Notes: a model not told the origin generated them from the letters alone. Positions 24 through 41,920 are shown, counted from the stretch's first letter. The stretch: 64,000 bases of DNA from Planctomycetota bacterium (GCA_022566315.1 JADFJC010000003.1:6109-70108); one strand, 5' to 3'. Numbers and translations are program-made.

Positions 24-1124
24 ATGCCAACTCAAGGCAAGATTGTTAAATGGGCGAGACAGCTTAACTCCAAGGTGCCATTCTTGACATCTTATATTTG
101 TCGTACTGCGTGTCGAAAACTGGCGGCCAACACAACAACACGGACGGTTCCATTCCTCATATCCGCAATTGCCAACAGCGACGAAGAAGTTAGACGCATC
201 GCTGAGGGTGCTCTCAGATCCTTAAATATTCCAGAAGCCATTGACACCCTGCTGTTGGGTTACATTTTCACCAAGAAAGATTCTTTGCATCAAATCCTGA
301 CAGTTTTGGGACGCACTGTGCCGGAAGATACTAAACTACCAGTACCGCAACCTTATGAATCTATAGGATTGCTTTGTCCTGCCGAACGAGCTTGGCAATT
401 TCAAAACAGTAAAGATGATACGCTCTTGGCCTTTGTGCCTGAAGGAGATTTCTTAGCGGGCGCCGAAGGGTTCGGCGTGCATCTGTACCCGTATTACCTG
501 GCACTTGCGTGTGTGACTAACGCTCAATACGCCCGTTTTCTAACCGAGCGTCGCCCGGATTCTTCGAAGTTGGCATACTGGATCAATATTCAACGTCAGG
601 ATGCCGCAATCCATAAAGAAAATAGTATCTATAAAGTGGATCCCGAGAAGGCTGAGTTGCCTGTGGTGTGGGTTACCTGGAATGGCGCTGTAGCATACTG
701 CAAGCGGGCTGACCTGCGACTGCCTACAGAACTGGAATGGGAAAAAGGTGCAAGGGGAGTTGACGGAAGACTGTATCCATGGGGCGATGAATGGGAGGCA
801 GGGAGACCGCAGCCTCCGGCAGGAAAGCTAAAACAGGAGGAAATAACCAGTGTATGGGCATACCCAACGACTCGCAGCCCTTATGGACTGTACCAGATGA
901 TCGGAAACATACACGAATGGTGTGCCGACTCATACGCAGAAGATGCATACCAACGTTATTCCCAAGGCGATCTAAGGCCACCGCGACACGGAGAGCACAA
1001 GGTACTGCGAGGAGGCCCTTGGCGTTTTGGTACTCCTGTCCACCTGAGAACAGAATATCGCAAAAGTACTGTCTGGCGTGCCGGCACCCCACTTTGTGGT
1101 TTTAGATGTGCCAAGAGTCTTTAA
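24..1124 (+). CDS. HEAT-repeat + formylglycine-generating-enzyme-like (SUMF1/FGE-sulfatase) domain protein
   Basis: 366-aa ORF. N-terminal HEAT-like repeat (PFLISAIANSDEEVRRIAEGALRSL). The C-terminal half carries FGE-sulfatase hallmark stretches (VTWNGAVAYCKRADLRLPTELEWEKGARG, YGLYQMIGNIHEWCADSY, VLRGGPW...CGFRCAKS). No signal peptide seen; the 5' end is close to the window edge. Confidence 0.75.
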   Translation: MPTQGKIVKWARQLNSKVPFLTSYICRTACRKLAANTTTRTVPFLISAIANSDEEVRRIAEGALRSLNIPEAIDTLLLGYIFTKKDSLHQILTVLGRTVPEDTKLPVPQPYESIGLLCPAERAWQFQNSKDDTLLAFVPEGDFLAGAEGFGVHLYPYYLALACVTNAQYARFLTERRPDSSKLAYWINIQRQDAAIHKENSIYKVDPEKAELPVVWVTWNGAVAYCKRADLRLPTELEWEKGARGVDGRLYPWGDEWEAGRPQPPAGKLKQEEITSVWAYPTTRSPYGLYQMIGNIHEWCADSYAEDAYQRYSQGDLRPPRHGEHKVLRGGPWRFGTPVHLRTEYRKSTVWRAGTPLCGFRCAKSL

Positions 1125-2708: not shown

Positions 2709-4025
2709 ATGAAAAAACGAAGTATTAATGTATTGGGCAAATTGGTGTTTATTACAATAATGGTTGGGGTGTTCACACCGGCGACTGTGTTGGCCCAGCA
2801 GAACGCTGACACAAGGATAGATAAGCTCGAATCGCAGCTTAAATCGCTTCAAGACGAGCTGGCAAAGTTAAAAGCAGAAAGAGCAGCGCCCCCGGTTGAC
2901 CAAAAGCAGATCGAACAACTGGTCAGCAAAGCTTTTGAAGAGAAAAAGGATGAGCTCGGAACCGTACCTGATTGGGTACAGAATATTAAAATTAGCGGTG
3001 ACTTTAGGTATCGCCACGAGCAGCTCGACTCAGAAGACCCAAGCACTGGCAGATGGAACAACGGAGTAACTCGCAATCGGATGCGTGCGAGATTGATGTT
3101 CGATGCAAAGGTCAACGATGACTGGGATATTGCCTTCAGAATCGCAACTGGTAGTGATAAGAGTCCGATTTCAACAAATCAGGACCTTGAAGACTCTTTC
3201 TCAAAGAAGGATGTCTGGGTGGACCTTGCCTACTTCACCTGGCATCCCGCAGCACAGGAAGGACTGAAGGTCTTCGGTGGCAAGATGAAGAACGCCTTTT
3301 ACAGGGCTGGTAAGAGCGAGCTTATTTGGGATACCGACCTTAATCCTGAAGGTCTCGCAGTTCAGTATGTGATGCCCCTAAGTGATGTCGACCAAATATT
3401 CATCAACGGTGGTGGTTTTTGGGTTGATGAAAGTACCAGCGGTGTCGATACGTCACTGTGGGGTCTGCAATCTTACTGGAAGCGCACGATTGGAAATTCG
3501 GATTACATCCTTGCTGGTGCGAGCTACTATGACTTTGGCAACCTGCAAGGGCGGGACGACCTTAAAGGCACTTGGGGATCCTCAAGCTTCTTAGGCAATA
3601 CCTCCTCGGGCGGGCTATACACAAGTGACTATGATATCTTTGAAGGCTTCGCCGAATATGGTTTCCAATGGAGAGGTATGCCACTTGCCGTCTTTGGCAA
3701 TTACGCCCAAAATACCGTTGCGAGCACCTCTGAAGACACAGGCTGGCTGATTGGATGCAAACTCAACAAGGCCAAGGAGCCGGGCTCCTGGGAACTGAGA
3801 TATGACTACAGGGATCTGGAAGCAGATGCCGTAGTCGGTGCTATGAGTGAATCTGATTGGCTTAGCGGTGGAACAGACGGCAAAGGCCATAAGTTCGTCT
3901 TCAAGTATCAGTTAGCCAAGAATGTCCAGGCAGGTCTCACCTATTATCACCTTGAAAATAATCGTAACAGTACTCGTGACGCGGATTATCGAAGGCTGCA
4001 AGCAGACCTGGTTTTCAAGTTCTAA
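2709..4025 (+). CDS. Putative outer-membrane porin with N-terminal coiled coil
   Basis: 438-aa ORF. Signal peptide (…VFTPATVLAQQ), coiled-coil segment (IDKLESQLKSLQDELAKLKAERA), then a beta-strand-rich sequence ending in ...ADLVFKF. A terminal aromatic residue is typical of OM beta-barrels. Confidence 0.6.
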   Translation: MKKRSINVLGKLVFITIMVGVFTPATVLAQQNADTRIDKLESQLKSLQDELAKLKAERAAPPVDQKQIEQLVSKAFEEKKDELGTVPDWVQNIKISGDFRYRHEQLDSEDPSTGRWNNGVTRNRMRARLMFDAKVNDDWDIAFRIATGSDKSPISTNQDLEDSFSKKDVWVDLAYFTWHPAAQEGLKVFGGKMKNAFYRAGKSELIWDTDLNPEGLAVQYVMPLSDVDQIFINGGGFWVDESTSGVDTSLWGLQSYWKRTIGNSDYILAGASYYDFGNLQGRDDLKGTWGSSSFLGNTSSGGLYTSDYDIFEGFAEYGFQWRGMPLAVFGNYAQNTVASTSEDTGWLIGCKLNKAKEPGSWELRYDYRDLEADAVVGAMSESDWLSGGTDGKGHKFVFKYQLAKNVQAGLTYYHLENNRNSTRDADYRRLQADLVFKF

Positions 4026-4087
4026 CTTGGACAAATAACAAGCTGAAACAACGTTAGTGTCGAACAACTAACTTAGCTAATAATTAA

Positions 4088-4128
4088 AGGCAAGCCTACA
4101 GATGAAATTTGTGGGCTTGCCTTTTTTC
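4088..4128 (+). terminator. Rho-independent terminator after the porin gene
   Basis: Stem AGGCAAGCC (4088-4096) pairs with GGCTTGCCT (4113-4121) and is followed directly by TTTTTT. Confidence 0.7.
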
Positions 4129-4388
4129 TTAGTTTTTAGCTAAAGTTGAACGAAGTGAAAGGCTGGAAAAAGGCGAAATGAGGCAGGAGCAGCAGCAGTG
4201 ATAAGGATGCAAAAATACTTGATATCGACAATCCCATTTGCAATCACAGGCCATACTTGGTACAATGTAGTGGTTCCCCCGACACAAAAAAAGACAAAGA
4301 GTATTTTCTCGCTTTACAAAGATCGAACATTTTGTTAGCATAATAATTTATTAGGGATATACAAATAACCCAGTCAGGAAAAAAGTTA

Positions 4389-4546
4389 GGACTGGTAAAG
4401 AAATTAGGTTTCGTTTTTGGCTGAGCGAGGACAAGGCTGGCAAGGAAGCAAAACGCAGGACTACTGGTTGGTAGTCCGAGTTTTGCTGACACCGCCAGCC
4501 GAAGCCGCAGCCAGACAAAAATGGAAGATAATTTATTTACAAGTCC
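4389..4546 (+). mobile_element. MITE-A copy 1 (158-bp palindromic element, flanked by TTA/TTA)
   Basis: Near-identical to 16724-16881 and 58329-58486. The ends GGACTGGTAAAGAAATTAGG... and ...TAATTTATTTACAAGTCC are imperfect inverted repeats (~29/36). The flanking triplet TTA is repeated directly at 4386-4388 and 4547-4549. Confidence 0.75.
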
Positions 4547-4563
4547 TTAGGAAAAGGCGTGGT

Positions 4564-5814
4564 ATGAAAATGAAAAGATTCTGGATTTTAGCAGGAATGT
4601 TAGGGATTTGTGGCAGTTGGGTATGGGTGTTCGAGGTTTATTCGAAACAGCCTAATGATTCTACTGCACCGGCTCCACAGCCAATTCTTACCCAAGCAGC
4701 GAGAGGCTACGCAGGTTCAAAAAAATGTATACACTGCCATCAACAATATTACAAGGGATGGAAATCTACCTTGCACAGCAAGATGGAACAGCCTGTTGTT
4801 TTAAAAGGGCCTGATAAAACAGTAGAAGCAGATTTCTCATCGGACAATCCTATTTTAACCTTTGGGTTAGAAGATGTCGATATGGTGGTAGGAAGTCGTT
4901 TTAAGCAAAGGTATGCCAAGAAAATCGGCGATGATTTCTACATGCTTCCGGCCCAGTGGAATGTAGAAACGAAGCAGTGGGTCAGATATCAACCGAAAAA
5001 TGACTGGTGGGCGGCAGAAAGTGTCTATCCCACGGAGTGGAACAAACGCCCCACGTCAAAATTATGCGAAGGATGCCATACTACAGGTTTTGATATCAAA
5101 ACAAAGGAACCTGTCGAACGAAATATTGCCTGCGAGTCATGCCACGGCGCGGGTGCTCTTCACGCAAAAAGTAAAGAAAAAGCGGACATCATCAATCCGG
5201 CAAAACTTGATCATGAACGGGGAAACATGGTCTGTTTTCAGTGCCATATGAGCGGCAGGCCGCCTGAGGGGGAATTTGAAGCCTATGCCTGGCCGGTTGG
5301 CTATAAGCCGGGAGAGGATTTGAAAGAGTATTGGGTCTATGCGAAGCCAACGGGAAAGAATGCGTATGAGATGTGGGCAGATGGATATGCCCATAAAAAT
5401 CGTGTTCAGGGTAATACCTTTATCAAAAGCAAAATGTATCGTAAGGGGCTTCGCTGTTTTACCTGCCATGACCCACATGGAAGCCGATATACCGCTTTTA
5501 CTGTAAAATCCGGTAAAAACAATTCCCTCTGTCTTTTGTGCCACGCAGAGAACTCTCCTCAGGCCGTATTTAACGTTTCTCTTTCTGAGCACACCCATCA
5601 TAAGGTTGACGGCCCTGGAAGTAGATGCATAGAGTGTCATATGCCGAAGACCGGTAAAAATGCCGTGAAGTGGGATGCAAGGGATCATAGCTTCAAGTTT
5701 ATATCACCACTATCGACCATAAGGTTTGGCACACCTAACGGCTGCAATAATTGTCACACAGACAAAACTCCTGAATGGGCATTTGAAGAAGTTGAGAAAT
5801 GGAAATTTGAGTGA
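4564..5814 (+). CDS. Membrane-anchored octaheme c-type cytochrome
   Basis: Eight CxxCH motifs (CIHCH, CEGCH, CESCH, CFQCH, CFTCH, CLLCH, CIECH, CNNCH). N-terminal hydrophobic anchor MKMKRFWILAGMLGICGSWVWVF. I place the start at ATG 4564 because the upstream part of the 4417 ORF is MITE-A sequence. Paralog of 7565-8902. Confidence 0.85.
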   Translation: MKMKRFWILAGMLGICGSWVWVFEVYSKQPNDSTAPAPQPILTQAARGYAGSKKCIHCHQQYYKGWKSTLHSKMEQPVVLKGPDKTVEADFSSDNPILTFGLEDVDMVVGSRFKQRYAKKIGDDFYMLPAQWNVETKQWVRYQPKNDWWAAESVYPTEWNKRPTSKLCEGCHTTGFDIKTKEPVERNIACESCHGAGALHAKSKEKADIINPAKLDHERGNMVCFQCHMSGRPPEGEFEAYAWPVGYKPGEDLKEYWVYAKPTGKNAYEMWADGYAHKNRVQGNTFIKSKMYRKGLRCFTCHDPHGSRYTAFTVKSGKNNSLCLLCHAENSPQAVFNVSLSEHTHHKVDGPGSRCIECHMPKTGKNAVKWDARDHSFKFISPLSTIRFGTPNGCNNCHTDKTPEWAFEEVEKWKFE

Positions 5815-5840
5815 GGGGTGCGAAGGACGTGAATAGGAGA

Positions 5841-6059
5841 ATGAAAAAAGGGCAGTTGTGGATTATTTTAATCGCCTTTTTTGTGTTAAGACTGCCTTTG
5901 TTACGAACTCCGACAGTATTTGCCCAGGGCGGCCCCCCGCTTATCACGGACGATCCAGGCACGCCTGGTAACGGTAAGTGGGAAATCAATGTAGCGTTCA
6001 CCGTTGAGAAACGTAGGATGGAGCGGTTATATGAGAGCCCAATCCATCACTTTAGCTAA
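5841..6059 (+). pseudogene. Truncated outer-membrane beta-barrel gene (N-terminal ~70 codons; paralog of 8974-9759)
   Basis: AGGAGA SD upstream of ATG 5841. QGGPPLITDDPGTPGNGKWEINVAFTVEKRRMERLYESP aligns with QGGPPLITDDPATPGDGNWEINLAFTAEKRRTGREYESP of the 261-aa paralog. It then diverges and stops where AT-rich DNA begins. Confidence 0.65.
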
Positions 6060-6273
6060 CTGCTCTGCCCTAATCTTCACATCCTTGTTCATAACCTTAT
6101 CTGCTTTTGCCAAAACAAAAAATTCACCCCAGAGTAGGAACTCATAAGGCCAGTATACAAAGGCACTTATAGAGCATCATCAAAGGTTTAACACCTCATC
6201 CAAAAAAAATATAAAAAACTTCTTGGCTGACTTAGATACGTTTGTTACGATAAGTAACAATCGTTACAAAATA

Positions 6274-7308
6274 ATGAGCAAGCTTATGAATAAATCTGTT
6301 TCTGGGAAAGGTTACAAATGGATTCTCCTGGTTCACCAGATGCCACCAAAACCAACAAGCAGCCGGGTGAAAGTGTGGCGTAGACTCCAGAATATAGGCG
6401 CTGTGCCGATTAAGAATTCTGTCTACGTTTTACCATTTACAAAAGAAGCCTCAGAAGACTTCCAATGGCTTAGACAGGAAATAATTGCCCAAAAAGGTGA
6501 TGCAACTATTTTCAAGGTGGATTCTACAGAAGGAATGAGCGATCAAGATATTATCAGCCAATTCCATAGAGTAAGAGATAAGGCTTATGATGAAATAGTT
6601 TCCAAGACCTTACAGCTCAAAGAGAATATCCAAGGAAGTATTAATAAGAGGCGTGTCTCTATTGCTCAGAAAGAAAAGTATGAGGCTGAATTAAAGAAAT
6701 TGAAGAGACACCTAAATGAAGTTATCTCTCTTGATTTTTTTCAAGCACCAAATAAACAAAAGGCAGAAAATACTATAACGAATTGTAACAAAATAATTGA
6801 AAGTCTTAAAGTATCTGGAAAAAGAGCCCAATCTGTTGAAAAAATCCGTTCGATTAGGATTCATAATAAAAATGAATTTCAGAATAAGAGATGGGTAACT
6901 CGGAAAGGACTTCATATTGACAGAATCTCCTCCAGTTGGCTTATAAAAAGATTTATCGATAAAGGAGCAAGTTTCTCTTTTGTTGGGGAAGATGACGTTG
7001 TAAAAAATGACGTTGGTTTTGATATCTACAATACAGAATTTAGCCACCATGGAGAAGACTGCACCTTTGAGACTCTGCTTAAAAGTTTTAATATAAAAGA
7101 CCCTGTTTTAGTTGAGATAGCTCAAATAGTTCATGACATTGATCTTAAGGATGGCAAGTTTGGTCGCAAGGAGGCTGAAGGGATTAATCAAATAATTATT
7201 GGACTCGGCCAGAAGCTAAATAATGATAAGAAATTACTTGAAAGAGGCATAGAGATATTTGATTCGCTTTATCAATATTACTCTTCAAAAAAACGGAAAA
7301 AGAGGTAG
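6274..7308 (+). CDS. chrB: ChrB-like chromate resistance protein (orphan; no chrA in the window)
   Basis: N-terminal KWILLVHQMPPKPTSSRVKVWRRLQNIGAVPIKNSVYVLP matches the ChrB N-domain pattern. C-terminal WVTRKGLHIDRISSSWLIKRFIDKGASFSFV matches the chromate-resistance C-domain pattern. The gene is very AT-rich (~27-33% GC by eye). ATG 6274 is preferred over TTG 6223. Confidence 0.7.
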   Translation: MSKLMNKSVSGKGYKWILLVHQMPPKPTSSRVKVWRRLQNIGAVPIKNSVYVLPFTKEASEDFQWLRQEIIAQKGDATIFKVDSTEGMSDQDIISQFHRVRDKAYDEIVSKTLQLKENIQGSINKRRVSIAQKEKYEAELKKLKRHLNEVISLDFFQAPNKQKAENTITNCNKIIESLKVSGKRAQSVEKIRSIRIHNKNEFQNKRWVTRKGLHIDRISSSWLIKRFIDKGASFSFVGEDDVVKNDVGFDIYNTEFSHHGEDCTFETLLKSFNIKDPVLVEIAQIVHDIDLKDGKFGRKEAEGINQIIIGLGQKLNNDKKLLERGIEIFDSLYQYYSSKKRKKR

Positions 7309-7313
7309 CAAAT

Positions 7314-7568
7314 ATGAAAAAATTCGTAATATCGCTTGTTTTTTTATCCCTGTGTTTAAAATATGGATGGAGCGCCCTGCATCGAGACGACAAGATCGAG
7401 GGCTGGCTCAACGGAAAGAAACTTCTTGAGGCTACCGATATGACCTTTATAGAAGCTGGTGGCGTGGGAGTTTGGACGAAGGCCGATGCGGCGACCTCGT
7501 TCGACGATCTTACAGTAAAGTCGGCTCACAACAGGACAACAACAGTTCGTAGCAGAGACACGGAATGA
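7314..7568 (+). pseudogene. Chimeric 84-codon ORF: AT-rich signal-like head fused to the C-terminal remnant of a DUF1080/LamG-like gene
   Basis: Composition switches at ~7370. The tail IEGWLNGKKLLEATDMTFIEAGGVGVWTKADAATSFDDLTV resembles the last strands of DUF1080-type (3-keto-disaccharide hydrolase-like) proteins. The stop overlaps the next ATG (ATGA). Confidence 0.4.
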
Positions 7569-8902
7569 TCGCGAATACCAAAATGAAGAGAGTGCTCATA
7601 ATCGCTTTATTATTGGCCGCATTATTGGCCGCTTTGGGCGTTGGAGTCGGCGGATATGTTCTTTTCACTAAAGTACGGAAGCTTCTCCCGTTTATTTCAC
7701 AACTTACCAGAGAGCGTGTGGGAACGGCTGTTTCCCTGCAACCTGAAGGGCAAAGGTCTGCCTATTTTGTAGGTTCACAGAAGTGTATGGACTGTCATGA
7801 GGAGGAGTATGAAGCGTGGAGATCTTCGTACCACTCCAAGATGATTCAGTCCGTCAAAGAGCGTCCTGAAGCGATTGTTGGAGATTTTTCAAAGCTTCCC
7901 GAGGATGCAGATTTCTCACAAGACGAGATTGTTTATACGATTGGCGGAAAATTCAAGCAGCGATATATGCTCCTGTCATATAACAAGGGAACTGAAGATT
8001 ACGTTATCGGCAACTACCAGTGGAATACCCAGTTGCAACATTGGCAGCCATATGCGCCGTATAAGGATTGGTACATTGACGGTTTTGTCCACGATAACAA
8101 GCAGGTGCACACCTCCAGAACGTGTGACGGCTGCCACTTTGTCGGGTTTATGAGTCGAGAAAAACGTATTGAACCGGCCATCGCCTGCGAAAGCTGCCAT
8201 GGACCAGGCAGTGTCCACGTCGATGATGAACGAAAGGAGAGCATCTACAAGGCGACCAATTATGATCCACACCGGGCCACCGAGGTTTGCCTTCAGTGTC
8301 ATATGAGAAACCGCGACAAGCGTCTTGAGACAGTGAATCTGCAAGATCTTTTCGGTGATGTTAGAGACTATCCTAAAGGATTTGAACAGGGGAAACCCTT
8401 GATCGATTACAAAATGCAGGCACCATTTGAACCAGGTCAGGAAACCAAAGAGTTCTACGGCAACGGGACCGGAAAGAAGAACAGGATGCAGGGCAACGAA
8501 TATATCCACTCGATCATGTACAGACACGGTATTACCTGCGTTAACTGCCACAATCCGCACAAGCTGGATGCCACTACGACCACCCCAACAGGGGACGCCC
8601 TGTGTATGAAATGTCACGAGTTCGGTTCCATATTAGGACCCCACCAGAAAAATCTGGAAGCCCATACTCACCACAAAGCAGATTCAAAAGGTTCTTCGTG
8701 TATCGAGTGCCATATGCCGAAAACCGGCAGACATCTTAGAAGCTCTCCGCTGACGGTCAGAACACACGTTTTTGGGTTTATTACACCGGATGAGACGCGA
8801 AAATACGGAGTCCCCAATGCCTGTACCAACTGTCACGACGACAAGGATCTTGTATGGTCGGAAAAGAGTCTGAAAGAATGGGGAATGGCTCAGTGGAAAT
8901 AA
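7565..8902 (+). CDS. Membrane-anchored octaheme c-type cytochrome (paralog of 4564-5814)
   Basis: Eight CxxCH motifs (CMDCH, CDGCH, CESCH, CLQCH, CVNCH, CMKCH, CIECH, CTNCH). N-terminal TM segment VLIIALLLAALLAALGVGVGGYVLF. The motif order and spacing are the same as in the first copy. Confidence 0.85.
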   Translation: MIANTKMKRVLIIALLLAALLAALGVGVGGYVLFTKVRKLLPFISQLTRERVGTAVSLQPEGQRSAYFVGSQKCMDCHEEEYEAWRSSYHSKMIQSVKERPEAIVGDFSKLPEDADFSQDEIVYTIGGKFKQRYMLLSYNKGTEDYVIGNYQWNTQLQHWQPYAPYKDWYIDGFVHDNKQVHTSRTCDGCHFVGFMSREKRIEPAIACESCHGPGSVHVDDERKESIYKATNYDPHRATEVCLQCHMRNRDKRLETVNLQDLFGDVRDYPKGFEQGKPLIDYKMQAPFEPGQETKEFYGNGTGKKNRMQGNEYIHSIMYRHGITCVNCHNPHKLDATTTTPTGDALCMKCHEFGSILGPHQKNLEAHTHHKADSKGSSCIECHMPKTGRHLRSSPLTVRTHVFGFITPDETRKYGVPNACTNCHDDKDLVWSEKSLKEWGMAQWK

Positions 8903-8973
8903 CCACAGATGGCAACGGATAGATCACTGGACTTTGATTTCAAACAAAGTCACCGAAAAGGAGATGTCAGAGG

Positions 8974-9759
8974 ATGACAAAAAGTTCACGGCTTGTAGCC
9001 TCATTAAAGTTTCTCATATGCCTGATGTGCTTGGCGGGCTCCATGCTGGTCGCGTCACAGCCAGCATACGGTCAGGGCGGGCCTCCGCTCATCACGGACG
9101 ATCCCGCCACCCCGGGCGATGGCAACTGGGAAATCAATCTCGCTTTCACCGCTGAGAAACGCAGGACGGGACGTGAGTACGAGAGTCCGCTTCTCGACAT
9201 CAATTACGGGCTTGGCGAGCACATACAGTTGAAATATGAAGTACCATGGCTGGTCCTGGATGAACGTGGCCAGCGAACGAAAACCGGACTGGGCAACTCG
9301 ACTTTCGGTGTTAAGTGGCGTTTTTTTGACGAAGACAGGCACGGAATCGACATGTCGGTCTACCCCCAGTTTGAATTCAATAATTCCGACTCCGCTACAG
9401 ATCGCGGGCTGGTTGACCGAGGAGTCGAGTTTGTTTTGCCGTTCCAGATAGAAAAGTCCTTCGGCCCCATATCCCTAAATCCGGAATTCGGATACGTGTT
9501 TAAGGAGTACAATAACAATGAGTGGATTTATGGTCTGGCGATAGGATATGAGGCATCAAGCAATCTTGAATTACTGGCGGAGATTAGTGGAACGACAGAC
9601 CAGGATTTTGAAGATGATGAGCTCCTGTTCAATCTTGGCGCCAGATGCGAACTGAGTGAAACCCACACTTTGCTGCTGTCAGCAGGAAGAAGTTTTCGCT
9701 CTGCAGCAAGCGGTGAGCCGGAATTCCTGCTCTACGTAGGCATACAGTTTAACTTTTAG
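8974..9759 (+). CDS. Small outer-membrane beta-barrel protein (MetA-pathway/'transporter'-like family, tentative)
   Basis: 261-aa ORF. Signal peptide ending ...ASQPAYGQ, then the conserved PPLITDDPATPG motif, alternating strands and a C-terminal ...GIQFNF. Confidence 0.65.
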   Translation: MTKSSRLVASLKFLICLMCLAGSMLVASQPAYGQGGPPLITDDPATPGDGNWEINLAFTAEKRRTGREYESPLLDINYGLGEHIQLKYEVPWLVLDERGQRTKTGLGNSTFGVKWRFFDEDRHGIDMSVYPQFEFNNSDSATDRGLVDRGVEFVLPFQIEKSFGPISLNPEFGYVFKEYNNNEWIYGLAIGYEASSNLELLAEISGTTDQDFEDDELLFNLGARCELSETHTLLLSAGRSFRSAASGEPEFLLYVGIQFNF

Positions 9760-10160
9760 CAAGCATGAAGAATAAGCACTTGAAGTAAGACCGCAAACAG
9801 TTGCAGCTAATCAATCGGATAATCGTGCGGGAGATGTTGGTTACGAGGAAGACTTTTGCAACAGTATCTGTTATTGTTCTTATAGTGTTAATGTGGGGCT
9901 TTGGCTGCTGGACTTGTGGATGGCTCGCTGGGTTGCTGCGCGATATCTGAAGAGCAGGACCGAAAAGGACAGGCACAAACGCCATGGGGAGTTACAAAAT
10001 GGTTTTTGGCAACCAGAGAAATAAAATAGTATCTTCTTGCAGTCCAGGGTAAATATTGATATTATGATGGGTTTGAAAAGTAGAAAAACATTTCTAAAAG
10101 TGTTAAATGGGAATGTCAGATTAGTAGAAGTAAGACAAGAAATGAAAAGGAGACACAAAT

Positions 10161-10301
10161 ATGGAAAACAAACAGGTGGAAATTGAGCAAAAGCAATGTA
10201 ATGTCAGTAAAGAAAATAAAGCAAAAAAGAAATGGCAAAGGCCCAAACTTGAGGATGTTTCCGGCAAAGTGATGGCCCAGCCTTACATTAGGTTCACTTA
10301 A
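10161..10301 (+). CDS. Unannotated 46-aa PqqA-like precursor peptide candidate
   Basis: It falls below the ORF-track size cutoff. AAGGAG lies 8 nt upstream of ATG 10161. Translation: MENKQVEIEQKQCNVSKENKAKKKWQRPKLEDVSGKVMAQPYIRFT. It lies 138 nt upstream of a PqqD-like gene and a radical SAM gene. Confidence 0.5.
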   Translation: MENKQVEIEQKQCNVSKENKAKKKWQRPKLEDVSGKVMAQPYIRFT

Positions 10302-10330
10302 TTGATTATTGATTATCGGCAATAATCAAT
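10301..10330 (+). promoter_or_regulatory. Stem-loop directly after the peptide ORF (possible attenuator or mRNA-stabilising hairpin)
   Basis: ATTGATTATTG (10301-10311) pairs perfectly with CAATAATCAAT (10320-10330), with an 8-nt loop. There is no U-tract, so it is not a canonical terminator. Confidence 0.4.
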
Positions 10331-10439
10331 CAGTGTGTATATGTAATAAGTACGCAAGCTGTAAGTGCACAAATCCTAAGTGTTGCCGTGCACCTGTGTG
10401 TTTATGCGCTAATGTCCTTGTAAGGAAAGAGAGGTTTGG

Positions 10440-10691
10440 ATGAATTTTACTGAACATACGAAAATCAGAAAAGAAAAATTCGGAACAGTGGTATTTGATA
10501 CCCTGACCGAAAAGATCTTTATAACTGACCAGATAGGTGGGGATATCTTGCAGTTAATTGAACAGGGTAAAGATTTGCCTGAGATGCTGAACGTGCTGGG
10601 CGATAACTACGATGGCGATAGGCAAACTATCAAAAAAGATGTTGTCGAGTTTACCGATCAATTGAAATCTGACAATATAGTCAGTGTATAG
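10440..10691 (+). CDS. PqqD-family protein (RiPP recognition element / peptide chaperone)
   Basis: 83 aa. KFGTVVFDTLTEKIFITDQIGGDILQLIEQGKDLPEML...IKKDVVEFTDQLKSDNIV fits the PqqD winged-helix pattern. It sits 8 nt before the radical SAM gene. Confidence 0.7.
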   Translation: MNFTEHTKIRKEKFGTVVFDTLTEKIFITDQIGGDILQLIEQGKDLPEMLNVLGDNYDGDRQTIKKDVVEFTDQLKSDNIVSV

Positions 10692-10699
10692 GAGAGAAC

Positions 10700-11716
10700 A
10701 TGGGTATTGTAGCTGAAGAAAAAAAACTGAGTCGTTTAACCAATGCAGGGCCGGATGATCAGTTGCGAGCAATCCTTCAAGGCAGTGATTTCCAGGATTA
10801 TAAGTCCCCGCTTTTTATTGCCTGGCAACTAAATTCAGCCTGCAACTTAGGATGTCTGCATTGCTGCGAGGAAGCTGGCCACAGTATGCCTGATGAGATG
10901 ACCAAAGAGCAGGCTCTTGATTTCTGCAGGCAAATTGCGGATTTGGATGTTCCTTATATGGCTATCTCGGGCGGAGAACCGTTGCTTTGTCCTCATGTTT
11001 TTGATGTTTGTGAGTTTATCAGGGACAAGAATATAAGCCTTAAGATAGAGACCAACGGTGAGTTTATTGATGAAGATGTAGCTCGCAGATTTGCTGGGTT
11101 GAGAATGCGTTCGGTACAAATAAGCCTTGATGGTGCAACGCCGCAAACCCACGAGAAATTAAGACTGCGAGGGGACTGGGCAAAAGCTGTAGCGGCCTGC
11201 AAATCTCTTATAAAACATGGTGTTAATACCGAAATCGTTTTTGTTCCAACACAGTTCAATATCCACGAAATCGGCGAAATCATCGATCTTGCCTACTCAT
11301 TAGGTGTTTATGGCTTTTATACGGGCAAAACAATGCGAATCGGCCGAGCAGCTCAAAACTGGGATGTTATATGTCCATCTGAGGAAGAATATGCCAAGTT
11401 CTTTGAAGTGTTGCAGGAAAAGACCGCTCAGTACGAGGGTAAGATGAAGGTTTACTATTATCCTTACGATGTGATTGAAGAATTGAAGTATAGGCTGGAA
11501 TATCCATCAGCAAGTCTTTTGGTTGTGCCCAACGGCAAAGTTAAGCTTATAGGCCCACTGCCTTTTATCTGTGGTGATATGAAGAAACAGAGCCTAAGCC
11601 AAATTTGGGAAAATTACAAAAATGCCTGGAAAAAGTCAGAGGTGATTGAATTCACAAAGAAAGTAATCGCCGAACCAAAACTTTTAGCTGAGTCAAATAA
11701 CTGGATAGAGATTTAA
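10700..11716 (+). CDS. Radical SAM enzyme, PqqE/SPASM-like architecture but with a Cys-poor C-terminal domain
   Basis: 338 aa. It has CNLGCLHC (CX3CX2C), GGEPLL and a TIM-barrel-like core. The C-terminal LLVVPNGKVKLIGPLPFICGDMKKQSLSQIWENY is shaped like a SPASM/twitch tail, but only 2 Cys occur after residue 200. Confidence 0.8.
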   Translation: MGIVAEEKKLSRLTNAGPDDQLRAILQGSDFQDYKSPLFIAWQLNSACNLGCLHCCEEAGHSMPDEMTKEQALDFCRQIADLDVPYMAISGGEPLLCPHVFDVCEFIRDKNISLKIETNGEFIDEDVARRFAGLRMRSVQISLDGATPQTHEKLRLRGDWAKAVAACKSLIKHGVNTEIVFVPTQFNIHEIGEIIDLAYSLGVYGFYTGKTMRIGRAAQNWDVICPSEEEYAKFFEVLQEKTAQYEGKMKVYYYPYDVIEELKYRLEYPSASLLVVPNGKVKLIGPLPFICGDMKKQSLSQIWENYKNAWKKSEVIEFTKKVIAEPKLLAESNNWIEI

Positions 11717-11723
11717 TTTTACT

Positions 11724-12599
11724 ATGAGCCTCATAAAACTAATAAGATATCGGTTCTTTCTTTTCGCCGGTATACTTCCTTTCTTTTTAGGTCAGGCCAT
11801 TGCTTTTAATGTTCAGCAAGCACTTAATTGGTCTCGTTTTGGGTGGGGATTTATGGGCATCTTCTTTGTTTTGGTCGCTGTTGAGTTGTTCAATGAGTAT
11901 TTTGATGCAAAGGAAGGCGGCGACAGAATTTTTGCACAGCAGCAACCTGAAATTCCTGATTGGTTTTTTAAGTTGGCAGTTTCAACTCTTGGGCTTGCTT
12001 TCCTTGTCTGCGTTTATTTAACTTTGCAGACAGGTTGGCCTGTGCTTTTGTTTTCCTTCCTTGGATTTCTTGGCGCGTATTTTTACGTTGGCCCTCCGAT
12101 TAGATGGGCATACCGCGGATTTGGGGAAATCGTGATAGGCCTTTGCTATGGCCCGTTTATGGTATTGGGCAGTTACTACATTCAAACTCAAAAGATTGAT
12201 TTCGTGCCATTTTATGTCTCTGTGATTAGCGGATTGAGTGTGTTTTGCCTGGCTGTTTTGAACGAAATACCGGACTATTATCAGGACACGCTGGTTGGAA
12301 AACGAAATTTAGTAGTAAAACTCGGAAAACGAAAAGCGATTTTACTGTTAAAGTCAGGGTTGGCGGGCGTATTTGTGCTTTTGATCTTGGGTGTCGTGAC
12401 AAAAACAATTCCCGTATTGGCAATATTCGCTGTGGCGACACTACCATGGCTTTTAAAGAGCATAAAAAGAGTCGAGAAAAACTATGATAATCCTACAGTG
12501 TTTCTTTCCTCAGTGAACACGATTGTTGTTACTCACATTGTGATTATTTTGTCTTTAGGTATAGGTTTTTTGAAGGCTGATTTCTTTACCAGTCCTTAG
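11724..12599 (+). CDS. UbiA-superfamily membrane prenyltransferase, MenA-like
   Basis: 291 aa and polytopic. The Asp-rich motifs NEYFDAKEGGD and NEIPDYYQDTLVGKRNLVVKLGKRKA resemble the MenA NxxxDxxxGxD and NxxxDxxxDxxxGKxTLxVxLG motifs. Confidence 0.75.
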   Translation: MSLIKLIRYRFFLFAGILPFFLGQAIAFNVQQALNWSRFGWGFMGIFFVLVAVELFNEYFDAKEGGDRIFAQQQPEIPDWFFKLAVSTLGLAFLVCVYLTLQTGWPVLLFSFLGFLGAYFYVGPPIRWAYRGFGEIVIGLCYGPFMVLGSYYIQTQKIDFVPFYVSVISGLSVFCLAVLNEIPDYYQDTLVGKRNLVVKLGKRKAILLLKSGLAGVFVLLILGVVTKTIPVLAIFAVATLPWLLKSIKRVEKNYDNPTVFLSSVNTIVVTHIVIILSLGIGFLKADFFTSP

Positions 12600-12726
12600 A
12601 TTGAATGAATCTTGAGAAGATTTATCAGCCGATTGTAGATGATCTAAAAACAGTGGAAAATCTTGTAGTGTCCTCCATTGGCTGATTATATTACTCAAAA
12701 AAATTTTAAAGATTGTGAAGTAAGTT

Positions 12727-13125
12727 ATGGAAAATGCAAAGATTCTGATTGTAGATGATGATCCGGATCTTATCAAGGTACTCCAGACTATTCTGGAAAG
12801 CGAGCAGTATACTGTAATCACAGCCGCCAACAGAACAGAAGGTATGGAAAAAATTAGGATTAACAAACCCGATTTAGTCATACTGGATGTTATGATGGCT
12901 ACGTGCCAGGATGGCTTTGAAATGTCCATAGAGTTGAAGCAAAACTCCGAATGTAAAGACATACCCATTCTAATGCTGACCGCTGTCAAGGGCAAGTTTG
13001 GTATAGATTTCAAATCTTCTGCTGGAGATCCTGTCTGGCTACCGGTGGACGAGTTCTTGGACAAGCCCGCAGAACCCAACGTGTTACTAACCAAGGTCAA
13101 AAAACTTCTGTCAAAGAAAACTTGA
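12727..13125 (+). CDS. Stand-alone response regulator receiver (CheY-like)
   Basis: 132 aa. It has KILIVDDDPD, the phospho-acceptor context DLVILDVMM, LMLTAV and a conserved Lys region. No output domain. Confidence 0.85.
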   Translation: MENAKILIVDDDPDLIKVLQTILESEQYTVITAANRTEGMEKIRINKPDLVILDVMMATCQDGFEMSIELKQNSECKDIPILMLTAVKGKFGIDFKSSAGDPVWLPVDEFLDKPAEPNVLLTKVKKLLSKKT

Positions 13126-13154
13126 CATGGAACAAGTACCCCAAGATACCAGAC

Positions 13155-13643
13155 TCATTGAACGGGCTTATTGGCTTCGATTAAACTCCGATGGATAGCC
13201 ATAGTAGGGCTCAGTTGTAGCCACTGTTTTCGCCAGTAATGTCCTGGGCGTATCGTTACAGGTTGTACCGCTTTATTGCATCGCCGCAGCGATGCATACA
13301 ATTCGACCAACCAGTAACCGTTCACCAATTCACCAGTACTGCCATCGCGAACTTTAGCCAGATAATCCATCTTCTTTGCTAACGGCTTGGCAATGTCCGA
13401 AAGGTCAAGAATAATGGGTGTATCATCCTGGATAAAGCCCAGCCATACTTGCGGCAATGCGGCCTCGACCTTGTCATCAAAGTCGCTATCCTTTACAAGG
13501 TGTGCTTCGAGACGATCCAGTCGTGAGAGGAACTTCGTGCGTTGATTTGGCAGGTGCCGTGCCATTTGACAAACGATAGGTTTGCCGCACCGAAGCAGTC
13601 CTATGAGGCTGTCTCGCAGGAACTTTTTGTCCGGCACTGACAA
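13155..13643 (-). pseudogene. DDE transposase fragment (IS4/IS5-superfamily-like N-terminal part)
   Basis: 162-aa ORF with DLSDIAKPLAKKMDYLAKVRDGSTGELVNGYWLVELYA, typical of the first catalytic-Asp region. No ATG start (TTG), an upstream frame break, and the remaining DDE residues are missing. Confidence 0.55.
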
Positions 13644-26697: not shown

Positions 26698-28089
26698 GTG
26701 GCGGAAGCGGATTGCATTCCTGTTCATTTCAGTCCGGAAGCGAACGTTTTGTGGAAAACCGTTATTCCCGCGGGCCACTCGTCTCCTGTCATCTGGAACA
26801 ATCGCATCTTTCTTACCGCCAGTGAACCAGCCAATAAAAAGGAACTCATTACGTTAGCCATCGATCGCCAAGACGGCAAAATCCTATGGCGACAGGTTGT
26901 TCAGGCCGAAACAAAGGTAAGGTTTCATCCACTGAATAATCCCGCATCTTCCACGCCGACCGCGGACGATAAGCATGTTTATGTCTATTTCGGGACCTAC
27001 GGGCTGATTTGTTACGACCATGCGGGAAACGAGGTCTGGCAGCGTAAAATCGACACGCCGAAAAGCAAATATGGAATGGCGACCTCGCCTATATTGTATG
27101 AAGACAAAGTGATCCTGGTTTTGGACGGCGACGGCGGTTCCTCTCGTTTGCTGGCGCTCCATCGAGACACCGGTAAGACGGTCTGGGAACAGCCGAGATC
27201 GTTGTTCAAGGCCGGCTGGTCAACGCCCGTGATCTGGCGTCATGGTGAGGCCGAAGAGCTTGTCGTGTTGGGTTCCAAACGGCTGACGTCCTACAACCCG
27301 TCCACCGGCGAGGAGATATGGTGGGCCGGTGGTTTTTCGCGCGAAACAGTCGGTATCCCCATAACCGGCGATGGGCTTCTGTTTGCCGGCGCCGCGGCCC
27401 TGGGTGGACGCGGAGATGATAAGTTGGATGCCGCTGGAACCTGGAAAATCACCGTCGAGGAGTTCGACCGGAATCACGACAATCAAATACAGCGCGACGA
27501 AATGACGAAAGGCTTTGCTTTTATACAGCGACCGGAGTTGCCCAAAGACAATCCCGGTTATGGGTTGCCGGTCAAAAACATGGACACTCTGCTGAAAATC
27601 TTCGACCATGACAAGAACCGGATCATCAGTGAAGCCGAATGGATGCAAACGATGTCAGGCTTCGCCGCCCATAGCCAACCCAACCTGGTGGCAATTCGTC
27701 CCGGAGCGACAAAGGATGCCCGAAAATCGCATGTGGCCTGGGAAATTCGGCGCGGCATTCCCGAGACGCCCTCGCTGCTCTATTGTCGGGGAAAACTCTA
27801 CCTCCTGCGGGCAGGCGGTGTGTTAACCTGCCTGGAGGCATCAACCGGAAAAGAACTCTTCCGCGAACGAATCGGGGCTGCGGGGCAATATATCGCATCA
27901 CCCATTGTTGCGGGCGAGAAGATTATCGCTGCCTCCGTGCGAGGCGTCGTGACGATCATCCAGGTTGATGACAAACTGCACGTTCTGGCGAGGAACGATT
28001 TCGGAGAAAAGATTTTTGCCACTCCGGCGGTTGCCGAAAATAAAATATATTTGCGGACAACCGGTCATTTGTACGCCTTGGGCGAGTGA
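26698..28089 (+). CDS. PQQ-like beta-propeller repeat protein with inserted EF-hand pair; 5' end unresolved
   Basis: BamB/PQQ-like repeats (SSPVIWNNRIFLTAS, YVYFGTYGLICYD, ...KIYLRTTGHLYALG). EF-hand loops DRNHDNQIQRDE and DHDKNRIISEAE. The conserved N-terminal WNQFRGPNGQG lies upstream of the GTG at 26698 in the same frame, with no canonical start codon before it. Confidence 0.65.
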   Translation: MAEADCIPVHFSPEANVLWKTVIPAGHSSPVIWNNRIFLTASEPANKKELITLAIDRQDGKILWRQVVQAETKVRFHPLNNPASSTPTADDKHVYVYFGTYGLICYDHAGNEVWQRKIDTPKSKYGMATSPILYEDKVILVLDGDGGSSRLLALHRDTGKTVWEQPRSLFKAGWSTPVIWRHGEAEELVVLGSKRLTSYNPSTGEEIWWAGGFSRETVGIPITGDGLLFAGAAALGGRGDDKLDAAGTWKITVEEFDRNHDNQIQRDEMTKGFAFIQRPELPKDNPGYGLPVKNMDTLLKIFDHDKNRIISEAEWMQTMSGFAAHSQPNLVAIRPGATKDARKSHVAWEIRRGIPETPSLLYCRGKLYLLRAGGVLTCLEASTGKELFRERIGAAGQYIASPIVAGEKIIAASVRGVVTIIQVDDKLHVLARNDFGEKIFATPAVAENKIYLRTTGHLYALGE

Positions 28090-29372: not shown

Positions 29373-29464
29373 CTTCTGAAGGGCTAATACTCAAGTAGTC
29401 TGATTGAGAATTGATAAATGCAGGTGAGCCCCTGCTCGATGAAAAAATTCTTAGGAGGTATGAG

Positions 29465-41700: not shown

Positions 41701-41920
41701 CAGCGGCAAACAGCTTTGGAATCACACACTCCCGTCTGCTCCCGTGCCATGGGGCATGGCTGTGGACGGCACGGGCCGCGTGTTCCTGACTCTGGTTGAT
41801 GGTCAGGTGCTCTGCATCGGCAGGCGATTGGAACAGGTCGTAAAGCACCGTTCTGTCCAAACAGGTCACCATGACCCGCGACCAGATGTGCCGGGTTCCG
41901 TGGAGTCGATTTCGTTATGA
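38789..41920 (+). CDS. Large secreted PQQ-like beta-propeller repeat protein (multiple propellers) with Rossmann/methyltransferase-like N-terminal segment (tentative)
   Basis: 1043 aa, high GC, with a signal peptide. Many BamB/PQQ-like blades (GRVFKAFGH, DGVLYALLG, GRIFAFRFGTYLTCLDAKTGRVIW, GLVLLAGSDGVVRALDSDTGREQW, GWVYAFEVTTGRLLW ...). Confidence 0.7.
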   Translation: MKSKRCFVINLSLVLLVGAAVVPSTIARENAERLLKKLEAKNGICVVLGDTSCELAIEMAHKSDWLFYVQLPSSEDVDRARRTAEAAGLNATRLQIDQGDLSHLHLANNVADVLIAVGGASKLSEAEALRVLRPQGRASLSGRELVKPVPDGMDDWSHPYHGPDNNPLSEDSLIRAPYLTQFLAEPRYGPAPQLAVAAGGRVFKAFGHIAWHKREEPFLNTLVAFNGFNGTMLWKQPLPEGLMVHRNTMIATPDTLFLGDEESCKLIDTVTGRRKGEIIPPVDIAGGTFWKWMALEDGVLYALLGEAEQVDATMRWKRQAHGWPWTGISKGYNQPEQPWGFGRNLLAIDPKTKTVLWHYHEDEPIDGRAVCMKNGRIFAFRFGTYLTCLDAKTGRVIWRKTKDNAPELFETLGEYLPRQSWQTNWRTTVYLKCSDRALYFAGPQIGKLLAVSTEDGRIIWQHPYDNFQLIIYSDGLYAISGPWGNNLSKKFDPLTGEVLAELPIGRRACTRPTGTPDSILFRAMGGSIRFDLASARPRWLSPMRPPCHDGVTVANGLLYWWPYTCDCQFTLNGLTCLGSAGNFDFTPNIARQNRLEKGPSGTELIETLTPSGADWPTFRANNQRTTTTMAVIPETSRQLWRTKPSALAGVRPTAPVAVGGLVLLAGSDGVVRALDSDTGREQWKAYTGGEIRIPPTIWKGRALVGSGDGWVYAFEVTTGRLLWRFRAAPAERKIPVYGKLLSTWPAASGVLVEDGTAYVAAGLVNYDGTYVYALDPATGNVRWCNDTSGHLDPEANTGVSVQGHLLLYEDKLYLAGGNAVSPAVYDIQSGRCLNDPAPLANCESASPRGWELSLVGNRVIACGRPFYSRPDIPVYDHTVTKKLLHASTGQRDIVWIDNSKLLCFEPLDKDALSRCVTDEKIPKHITQAWGQFKVSEKPLWQHDCPNSIAVAITKNAVVIADASQVTALELRSGKQLWNHTLPSAPVPWGMAVDGTGRVFLTLVDGQVLCIGRRLEQVVKHRSVQTGHHDPRPDVPGSVESISL

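Follow-up and report, generated by a model that had tools for sequence, protein, structure and literature searches.

In a 64,000-nucleotide stretch of DNA from a Planctomycetota bacterium (GCA_022566315.1 JADFJC010000003.1:6109-70108), hereafter the window, four co-directional plus-strand genes at positions 10161-12599 (all positions are those of the window unless a locus is named) form a cassette that encodes a small peptide, a PqqD-family recognition element (RRE) for peptides that are made on the ribosome and modified after translation (RiPPs), a radical S-adenosylmethionine (SAM) enzyme and an integral-membrane prenyltransferase of the UbiA superfamily. The small open reading frame (ORF) is a translated, strongly constrained peptide, and the four-gene association is obligatory. 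Judged by sequence models, the products of the cassette fall outside PqqA, PqqE, strict PqqD, MftC, SPASM and MenA and are covered by definitions at the superfamily level only. The evidence leans modestly towards a membrane molecule that derives from the peptide, is prenylated and plays a part in respiration, and the product is probably a quinone-like carrier that is built on the invariant tyrosine of the peptide and serves anaerobic respiratory electron transport. The features of the cassette are as follows.

10149-10152, plus strand: Shine-Dalgarno sequence GGAG, 8 nt 5' of the peptide ATG, read from the sequence
10161-10301, plus strand: precursor peptide gene of 46 codons, from the ORF listing; homologous small ORFs in about 200 loci
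10233-10262, plus strand: putative RRE-recognition segment W25-Q-R-P-K-L-E-D-V-S34, from conservation and a weak hidden Markov model (HMM) match; predicted binding site
10272-10298, plus strand: invariant core M38-A-Q-P-Y-I-R-F-T46, with the stop codon directly 3', from a 72-sequence comparison
10440-10691, plus strand: stand-alone PqqD-family RRE of 83 amino acids (PF05402, E 1.4e-10)
10700-11716, plus strand: radical SAM enzyme of clade R1, 338 amino acids, with CNLGCLHC (PF04055, E 1.1e-23)
11724-12599, plus strand: integral-membrane UbiA-superfamily prenyltransferase of the MenA/UBIAD1 type, 291 amino acids (PF01040, E 5.4e-26)

The genes lie where the initial annotation of this DNA had placed them, separated by 138, 8 and 7 nt, and the strong Shine-Dalgarno sequence that it reported before the 46-codon ORF is present. 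Translation of 10161-10301 gives MENKQVEIEQKQCNVSKENKAKKKWQRPKLEDVSGKVMAQPYIRFT.

The precursor peptide and its recognition motif

The small ORF, which the initial annotation had taken as part of the cassette, is conserved next to homologous PqqD/radical SAM pairs, and this is seen from both sides. A protein search with the radical SAM enzyme returned 1839 relatives, of which the best 120, at 71-91% identity, come from metagenomes of Planctomycetota, Phycisphaerae and Sedimentisphaerales. In a scan of one genome per GTDB species, at least 380 loci encode the enzyme; 80 of these were fetched, and tblastn with the window proteins placed the peptide ORF, PqqD and UbiA next to the radical SAM gene wherever the contig was long enough. 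Starting from the radical SAM enzyme, 77 loci with a homologous peptide ORF by the PqqD/radical SAM pair were obtained. For the reverse approach, a back-translated MAQPYIRFT-stop pattern was scanned over 241 million metagenome records, in which well under one chance match is expected by our own estimate. At least 120 matches were found, and in 115 of the 120 matches listed a PqqD, radical SAM or UbiA homologue lies beside the pattern; the five exceptions among them are mostly close to contig ends.

The peptide is divided into two parts of very different conservation. Its N-terminal leader (residues 1-24) is rich in Lys and freely variable, and its C-terminal 22 residues are of fixed length and follow the pattern W-x-x-P-x-[LMF]-x-[DE]-V-S-x-x-[VI]-M-A-Q-P-Y-I-R-F-T-stop. 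The residues A-Q-P-Y-I-R-F-T are unchanged in all 72 distinct sequences and the preceding M in 71 of them, while W, P, V and S, which stand at a fixed distance from the C-terminus, are also unchanged in the same set. For the last nine codons in 72 distinct DNA versions of the gene, the first, second and third codon positions have minor-allele fractions of 0.045, 0.002 and 0.427, respectively. Since the third positions vary freely and the residues are fixed, the translated peptide is under strong purifying selection. The combination of a free leader with a core that is fixed across labels of more than ten phyla suggests conservation of a cofactor-like kind. In the databases, the peptide is spread over 386 protein clusters that are all named 'hypothetical'; it has no Pfam match and matches no NCBIfam model at its curated cut-off.

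The putative recognition segment has the family consensus W-x-x-P-x-[LMF]-x-[DE]-V-S. A W/Y/L-x-x-P/L/I recognition sequence is bound by many RRE groups, including PqqD, lasso FusE, McjB and the sactipeptide StsC (2025 survey, PMC12710340). Because the W-x-x-P class spans RRE groups in this way (PMC12710340), the PqqA pattern that the initial annotation saw mirrored in the peptide is better explained as a shared chaperone-docking motif than as PqqA homology: the likeness comes down to the generic W/Y-x-x-P motif, which is common to lasso and sactipeptide leaders. In an NCBIfam scan of four family members (E<=10), the PqqA model gave no match, and the only match of any kind was a weak one (E 0.013-0.09), in which the W-x-K-P-x-L segment aligns with the beginning of the paeninodin lasso leader. 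Membership in the PqqA family was considered and is ruled out, as the PqqA model does not match and the likeness is limited to the generic RRE-recognition motif. PqqE cross-links a conserved Glu-x-x-x-Tyr pair in PqqA. In 71 of the 72 sequences, Met takes the place four positions ahead of the invariant Tyr, and the Glu-x-x-x-Tyr pair is absent, which agrees with the earlier observation that the cross-linked Glu is replaced. What the loci do share is the generic arrangement of an RRE-dependent RiPP pathway, a short precursor with the motif beside an RRE and a modifying enzyme, found in about 200 of them.

Copies of the peptide gene are also found outside the cassette. In L129 (317-892) and in L208-L210, the latter found by look-up of a 98%-identical peptide, no PqqD, radical SAM or UbiA gene lies beside the copy (L-numbers denote related loci from genomes and metagenomes). 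The orphan copies follow a Fer2/Fer4 gene of 186-191 amino acids that ends an Rnf-like/NuoF-like FeS-flavoprotein operon in some Planctomycetota (L208:335-6977), and the same Fer2/Fer4 gene precedes the full cassette in L001 (1-7442). The orphan copy could be read as a second precursor supplied in trans, as its setting suggests. Another local observation is a perfect AT-rich hairpin of 10-11 bp (10302-10332), which starts directly after the peptide stop codon of the window and is common only to its close relatives L008, L012 and L013. A conserved terminator or attenuator after the peptide gene was considered and rejected: the intergenic region of the window shows no exceptional structure (z = -0.6), the 50 nt downstream of the gene have no general structure across 191 distinct loci (mean z = -0.7), and a scan for consensus promoters and terminators equalled the shuffled expectation.

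Two gene orders and the cassette enzymes

More than 200 loci were recovered, labelled as more than ten phyla and drawn entirely from metagenomes and metagenome-assembled genomes (MAGs), and they show two gene orders. Type A, the order of the window, is peptide-PqqD-radical SAM-UbiA, with 57 complete loci and five more in which the radical SAM gene is duplicated in tandem. Type B is PqqD-radical SAM 1-UbiA-radical SAM 2-peptide-radical SAM 3, with 29 complete loci and many partial ones. Three clades of the radical SAM enzyme, with about 40% identity between them, track gene position: R1 follows PqqD, R2 follows UbiA and R3 follows the peptide. The enzyme of the window belongs to R1. The tandem duplicates of R1 (peptide-PqqD-R-R-UbiA in L006:9037-10056, L018, L021, L049, L051 and L200) are about 67-70% identical to the window enzyme and stand apart from clades R2 and R3 of type B.

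Type A loci are labelled as Planctomycetota, Omnitrophota, Elusimicrobiota, Lentisphaerota, Acidobacteriota, Nitrospirota, Nitrospinota, Thermodesulfobacteriota, WOR-3 and others, and type B loci, mostly from soil, as Elusimicrobiota and Pseudomonadota (Steroidobacteraceae, Burkholderiales and Casimicrobiaceae); single odd labels, one 'Hadarchaeota' and one 'Bacillota', are not to be trusted. No cultured host was found among the 80 genome loci and the closest 120 radical SAM enzymes, 120 peptides and 120 type B UbiA proteins with a source name, all of which come from MAGs or metagenomes.

To count associated genes, a well-flanked set of de-duplicated loci was used, each 8 kb or longer and flanked on either side by 2.5 kb or more; 38 of them are type A and 21 type B. 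The counts are as follows.

UbiA: type A 38/38; type B 21/21
PqqD: type A 38/38, adjacent to the radical SAM gene; type B 16/21, divergent
NQR: type A 12/38; type B 0/21
Polyprenyl synthase: type A 10/38; type B 6/21
Histidine kinase/response regulator: type A 14/38; type B no kinase and one regulator of 21
NapC/Mtr: type A 0/38; type B 6/21

UbiA is therefore linked to the radical SAM gene in 59 of 59 well-flanked loci, and in type B it lies between two radical SAM genes. It tracks the radical SAM enzyme and not men genes, in line with the initial annotation, which had joined the two in one pathway. Flanking genes vary greatly among the loci (examples are enolase, GlmS and Rnf-like operons), which indicates that the four genes travel as a unit.

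The RRE of the window passes the Pfam gathering score of PF05402 (41.8 vs 23.4 bits), misses PqqD sensu stricto (TIGR03859, 27.8 vs 46 bits) and is also below the WgkC and lasso equivalog cut-offs of NCBIfam. Its type B orthologues are likewise annotated PF05402. The radical SAM enzyme passes PF04055 (84.7 vs 29.5 bits) and has no SPASM domain match in the Pfam scan. Its best NCBIfam match is the mycofactocin maturase MftC (TIGR03962), at 124.9 vs 265 bits and over residues 35-243 only; the AhbD model reaches 123 vs 500 bits on the N-terminal core only, and PqqE (TIGR02109) 75.3 vs 381 bits. Every NCBIfam match stays under half its cut-off, so that by these models the enzyme scores as none of the known maturases. 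The earlier description of it as Cys-poor also stands: a single CX3CX2C motif is present and the C-terminal twitch/SPASM-like domain is Cys-less. In a 15-sequence alignment (31-87% identity), C48, C52 and C55 are the only invariant cysteines, and because the C-terminal cysteines are not conserved there, the enzyme has no auxiliary Fe-S cluster. Each of the 255 family members retains the CX3CX2C triad, and an exhaustive representative search delimits a separate family of full-length sequences that extends to about 30% identity.

By superposing the AlphaFold2 (AF2) model of the radical SAM enzyme (predicted local distance difference test, pLDDT, 88) on solved structures, the nearest relatives were found to be SkfB (template modelling score, TM, 0.71; Foldseek E 1e-16), PqqE and SuiB, with further fold matches to BlsE and DesII and then to MoaA, viperin and anSME. 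The C-terminal domain fold of the model superposes on those of SkfB, PqqE and SuiB despite the absent Cys ligands. Similarly, a sequence profile search of the PDB gave SkfB (1.6e-37) and PqqE (4e-25), with only the core covered.

The prenyltransferase passes PF01040 (91.8 vs 34.2 bits), and its sequence holds NEYFDAKEGGD and NEIPDYYQD..GKRNLVVKLG. The best NCBIfam matches are MenA models, all of them below cut-off (124.5 vs 277 for NF004749, 120 vs 225 for TIGR02235 and 62.3 vs 102 for TIGR00751), and the type B orthologue is also below the MenA cut-offs. Its two Asp-rich motifs, N57-x-x-F-D61..G65-x-D67-R68 and N180-x-x-P-D184-x-x-x-D188, are the same throughout type A and type B, as are about 50 further positions. 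The nearest solved relative, by sequence and by fold, is human UBIAD1 (TM 0.70; AF2 model pLDDT 83), which is a menaquinone-4 synthase, and the all-helical model is nearest to UBIAD1, DGGGPS, AfUbiA and ApUbiA. Pipelines of the Joint Genome Institute (JGI) name the UbiA homologues 'DHNA octaprenyltransferase', and the automatic name is otherwise just 'prenyltransferase'. In general, no curated NCBIfam model is reached at its cut-off by any of the four cassette products, and the catalytic motifs, intact throughout, suggest that the enzymes are active.

Gene neighbourhood and the proposed product

To find neighbours, the flanking ORFs were all clustered and then compared with Pfam and NCBIfam; the ORF clusters 'c4' and 'anti' were set aside as spurious antisense ORFs in high-GC type B loci. 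The recurrent neighbours are a polyprenyl synthetase, an NQR-type operon, a histidine kinase with multiple transmembrane segments together with a receiver, NapC/NirT tetrahaem cytochromes, MtrB/PioB porins and MtrC/OmcA-like cytochromes. The polyprenyl synthetase (PF00348; 16 of 59 loci) is most like heptaprenyl and octaprenyl diphosphate synthases. Among the NQR neighbours, NqrB is above the TIGR01937 cut-off (358.6 vs 349.9), NqrF slightly under its own (281 vs 295), and NqrA scores 178 vs 450; three loci, L048, L057 and L184, have the cassette within the nqr operon itself, with nqrE on one side of it and nqrF on the other. A NapC/NirT tetrahaem gene was found in 20 loci with a closer NapC query, and in L100, L132, L170, L185 and L191 it stands co-directionally inside the cassette, between radical SAM 2 and the peptide (ORFs read in L132 and L185). 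MtrB and MtrC adjoin the cassette in 5-6 loci. In L213, FrdC-FrdA-FrdB, fumarase and DcuAB lie directly upstream, with NarXL-like regulators and NarK-like transporters downstream; in L214, a Mo-oxidoreductase, cytochrome b, NapC/NirT and a Coq10-like START protein lie upstream and MtrB downstream; and in L215, NrfA, a flavoprotein and NapC/NirT lie upstream and UbiB directly downstream. The Coq10-like START protein is directly upstream in L214 and is also found in six other loci, and L211 and L216 have CRP/FNR-type regulators just upstream. Among the flanking ORFs of the related loci, genes of the men and mqn sets do not recur. The common ground of these neighbours is the membrane quinone pool, especially in its low-potential anaerobic use, and the presence of polyprenyl diphosphate synthase, NQR, NapC/NirT, fumarate reductase, UbiB and Coq10-like START proteins strengthens the idea of a polyprenylated, quinone-like product.

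Some of these neighbours are unusual in themselves. The NQR-type operons by the cassette in L016 (10-4739), L019 (20-5446) and L026 (5-5480) look hybrid, with an NqrA-like subunit that carries an RnfC-like 4Fe-4S dicluster insert and a last subunit that is NqrF-like (Fer2, FAD and NAD domains); such an operon could be an intermediate between RNF and NQR. In the NapC/NirT proteins of the type B cassettes L132 (2697-3272) and L185 (3162-3758), the first haem motif has three residues between the cysteines (C-G-T-A-C-H and C-S-G-A-C-H), and the remaining three have the common CXXCH form. In L184 (8014-8466), L057 (9047-9499), L016 (4795-5229) and five other type A loci, the space between nqrF and the kinase or peptide gene holds a conserved protein of some 150 amino acids with no Pfam or NCBIfam match.

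Based on the results presented above, a pathway in five steps may be proposed. The peptide is translated, as the codon-level selection shows. The PqqD-type RRE would then dock on W-x-x-P-x-L-x-D-V-S and offer the MAQPYIRFT core to the R1 radical SAM enzyme, by analogy with the homologous PqqD/PqqE, lasso B1 and SkfB. A 5'-deoxyadenosyl radical would take a hydrogen from the core, so that a new bond forms, or fragmentation occurs, at the Tyr or close to it. Because the enzyme has no auxiliary Fe-S cluster, a redox-neutral or self-contained step is likelier than an oxidative cross-link of the SPASM kind, and in type B the paralogues R2 and R3 may add or share radical steps. The MenA/UBIAD1-like enzyme would put a medium- or long-chain polyprenyl group, possibly supplied by the often adjacent polyprenyl diphosphate synthase, on the modified aromatic ring and so anchor the product in the membrane. 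Finally, to judge from the gene neighbourhood, the product would act as acceptor or donor for NQR, NapC/NirT (CymA) quinol dehydrogenases, fumarate reductase and Mtr conduits. Separate parts of this scheme have precedents. Tyr-derived rings are prenyl acceptors of UbiA-family enzymes, as homogentisate is for plastoquinone and tocopherol and as 4-hydroxybenzoate derived from Tyr is in eukaryotes, and in the futalosine route radical SAM enzymes build a quinone ring that is prenylated afterwards by a UbiA-type enzyme.

A more far-reaching version of this scheme is tentative: the product may be a bona fide low-potential lipoquinone that replaces or complements menaquinone, made by a third, chorismate-independent route in which radical SAM chemistry draws the head group from the Q-P-Y...F-T core and a MenA-like enzyme adds the polyprenyl chain. 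It would then be the membrane quinone with which NQR, CymA/NapC-type cytochromes, fumarate reductase and Mtr conduits work, or a quinone-like cofactor obligatory to them, and its hosts would be many uncultured anaerobes and soil Proteobacteria.

Several points weigh against a prenylated respiratory carrier. All enzymatic steps are drawn from homology and gene context, and we know of no UbiA-family enzyme that takes a peptide substrate. Among the clustered flanking ORFs, no protease, hydroxylase or methyltransferase is conserved with the cassette, and for this reason the excision and oxidation of a quinone head group have no evident enzyme. Respiratory neighbours are found in only about 40-55% of the well-flanked loci (15/38 in type A and 12/21 in type B, with the first marker set). 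In addition, the taxon labels are taken from MAG records, in which binning errors are possible.

A cassette with no conserved protease or ring-oxidising enzyme would also fit a product that stays a prenylated lipopeptide and is not a redox carrier, serving instead as a small lipid-anchored part of respiratory complexes in the membrane, or as a factor that assembles or stabilises them. The embedding of the cassette in nqr operons is in keeping with such a role, as is the fact that all nine core residues are fixed, where a head-group precursor might need only one or two. However, the partners are diverse (NQR, NapC/NirT, fumarate reductase, and Mo-oxidoreductases with cytochrome b), and what they have in common is the quinone pool, not a subunit; UbiB and the Coq10-like START neighbours handle quinones, and the UbiA is of the MenA/UBIAD1 type. 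A lasting lipopeptide is thus considered unlikely.

The type of the UbiA raises in turn the question of whether it is an ordinary MenA that works for menaquinone, with the peptide, PqqD and radical SAM enzyme making a separate soluble cofactor of the pyrroloquinoline quinone (PQQ) or mycofactocin type and the operon being shared through respiration. MenA models are its best HMM matches, the JGI name 'DHNA octaprenyltransferase' is that of a MenA, and the RiPP cofactors that set the precedent are soluble. On the other hand, the protein falls below every MenA equivalog cut-off (62 vs 102 bits for TIGR00751, for example), and men or mqn genes are not recurrent near the cassette. The linkage to the radical SAM gene in 59/59 loci holds across phyla, and the place of UbiA is kept in both gene orders, in type B between two radical SAM genes. 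We therefore hold this division of labour to be improbable.

Two features that follow the cassette of the window bear on a third alternative.

12727-13125, plus strand: single-domain response-regulator receiver (PF00072)
13127-13285, plus strand: truncated gene of the partner histidine kinase, reduced to a 5' remnant (tblastn, 43% identity to the first 52 amino acids of the L016 kinase)

The receiver is a lone PF00072 gene, the orphan that the initial annotation had described, and its orthologues follow UbiA in L012, L013, L016, L019 and L025 at 65-76% identity. In the kinase remnant, stop codons break the frame after about 22 codons, and the loss of the kinase after the receiver gene is probably due to rearrangement; on the opposite strand, 13155-13643 holds a 162-residue ORF with no Pfam match. 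A kinase with multiple transmembrane segments and a receiver follow the cassette in 14/38 type A loci, and a gene of the polyprenyl-synthase fold is adjacent, as ComQ is in ComQXPA, so that the product might be a ComX-like prenylated signalling peptide sensed by the neighbouring two-component pair. Yet pheromones diversify between strains, whereas this core is identical across phyla; the flanking ORFs include no conserved exporter; a kinase or regulator is found in 0-1 of 21 type B loci; and in the window the kinase is truncated and the cassette intact. The kinase could equally sense the redox state of the product. A signalling role is accordingly given little credence. Still more remote is an ordinary antimicrobial RiPP cluster, of which an RRE, a radical SAM enzyme and a small precursor are the standard gene set, given that the core is fixed in 72 distinct sequences from many phyla, that the flanking ORFs hold no transporter, immunity gene or protease, and that the setting is consistently respiratory.

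To our knowledge, only two redox cofactors derived from ribosomal peptides are known, PQQ and mycofactocin, and both are soluble. If the proposed respiratory carrier is real, it adds a lipid-anchored cofactor to them, gives a respiratory membrane carrier a peptide origin and provides a new kind of substrate for the UbiA superfamily. It may also explain how quinone-dependent enzymes (NQR, CymA/NapC, fumarate reductase and Mtr-type extracellular electron transfer) work under anoxia in uncultured Omnitrophota and Elusimicrobiota, sediment Planctomycetota and soil Steroidobacteraceae. There are implications for annotation as well: the UbiA is automatically named MenA and the peptide is usually left uncalled or 'hypothetical', so that reconstructions from MAGs may misjudge quinone biology.

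The remainder of the window was also inspected. Its large ORFs include no pqqB, pqqC, pqqE, men, mqn or ubi genes, which extends the absence of pqqB and pqqC noted earlier. Tblastn of the window with neighbour proteins gave no match for NQR subunits A, B and F, polyprenyl synthase, NapC, MtrB or MtrC, and the kinase remnant was the only extra match. The genes upstream of the cassette (2709-9759) encode two multihaem c-type cytochromes (4417-5814 and 7565-8902) that have weak MtrC/MtrF- and DmsE-like matches, a Porin_5 porin (2709-4025), an outer-membrane barrel of the MetA-pathway type (8974-9759) and ChrB (6223-7308). This group may be an outer-membrane electron conduit, and its porin and cytochromes count towards the respiratory setting of the cassette. 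A MoaA gene (GTP 3',8-cyclase-like radical SAM protein, 1312-2265) resembles the cassette enzyme only generically and is unrelated, as is the FGE-sulfatase-domain gene at the start of the window (24-1124). Three PQQ-like propeller genes (26698-28089, 29411-30784 and 38789-41920) were considered as partners and rejected, as they encode BamB-like PQQ_2 repeats (PF13360) and not PQQ dehydrogenases. The initial annotation had cited them as circumstantial support, and with BamB-like repeats nothing ties them to the cassette.

Comparison with known systems

We know of no characterised pathway that couples an RRE/radical SAM pair with an integral-membrane UbiA prenyltransferase. The cassette is not described in the full-text literature searched (RRE, radical SAM, UbiA, peptide motif and quinone context), a scope to which subscription-only papers do not belong. 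Genome-mining surveys of RREs, including PMC12710340, make no mention of prenyl or UbiA. The judgement that this coupling is undescribed is thereby upheld, as the literature searched gave no instance of it and no curated model covers it.

The cassette resembles the PQQ system in that its short precursor has a conserved Tyr after a W-x-x-P-type motif, its RRE is of the PqqD family and stands alone, its radical SAM enzyme is near PqqE in structure, and the strong conservation of its peptide is cofactor-like rather than antibiotic-like. It differs in that the peptide has no PqqA match and carries Met for Glu, the radical SAM enzyme is without the SPASM cysteines, no pqqB, pqqC or pqqF lies near the cassette, and a membrane prenyltransferase is obligatory. 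With mycofactocin (MftA/MftB/MftC), it shares an RRE and a radical SAM enzyme acting on the invariant C-terminal core of a small peptide, which in mycofactocin leads to a redox cofactor and is proposed to do so here. In contrast, the cassette core ends in ...YIRFT and not in ...GVY, its radical SAM enzyme is without auxiliary-cluster cysteines, homologues of MftD, MftE and MftF are absent, and the predicted product is prenylated and membrane-bound rather than glycosylated and soluble.

The likeness to menaquinone synthesis (MenA/UBIAD1, and MqnE and MqnC of the futalosine route) lies in the MenA/UBIAD1-like enzyme with intact Asp-rich motifs, the combination of radical SAM and UbiA-family enzymes, an adjacent polyprenyl diphosphate synthase of the long-chain type, and the presence nearby of NapC/NirT, fumarate reductase and NQR, which work with low-potential quinones. 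However, the radical SAM enzymes of the cassette fall in the SkfB/PqqE structural group of peptide maturases and come with an RRE and a ribosomal precursor, the UbiA is below all MenA cut-offs, and no genes of the chorismate-derived pathway are nearby. Among SkfB and the twitch/SPASM maturases (SuiB, CteB and anSME), SkfB is the closest relative of the radical SAM enzyme by both structure and sequence, and both are RRE-dependent, the cassette enzyme by prediction. Unlike that group, the cassette enzyme has lost all auxiliary-cluster cysteines from its C-terminal domain, as have BlsE and DesII, and its RRE is a separate protein. Finally, in some type A loci, as in ComQXPA, the genes for a ribosomal peptide and for an isoprenoid donor adjoin those for a membrane histidine kinase and its response regulator; but the prenyltransferase of the cassette is an integral-membrane UbiA and not a soluble ComQ-type enzyme, its peptide is invariant and not hypervariable, and a radical SAM enzyme and an RRE are added.

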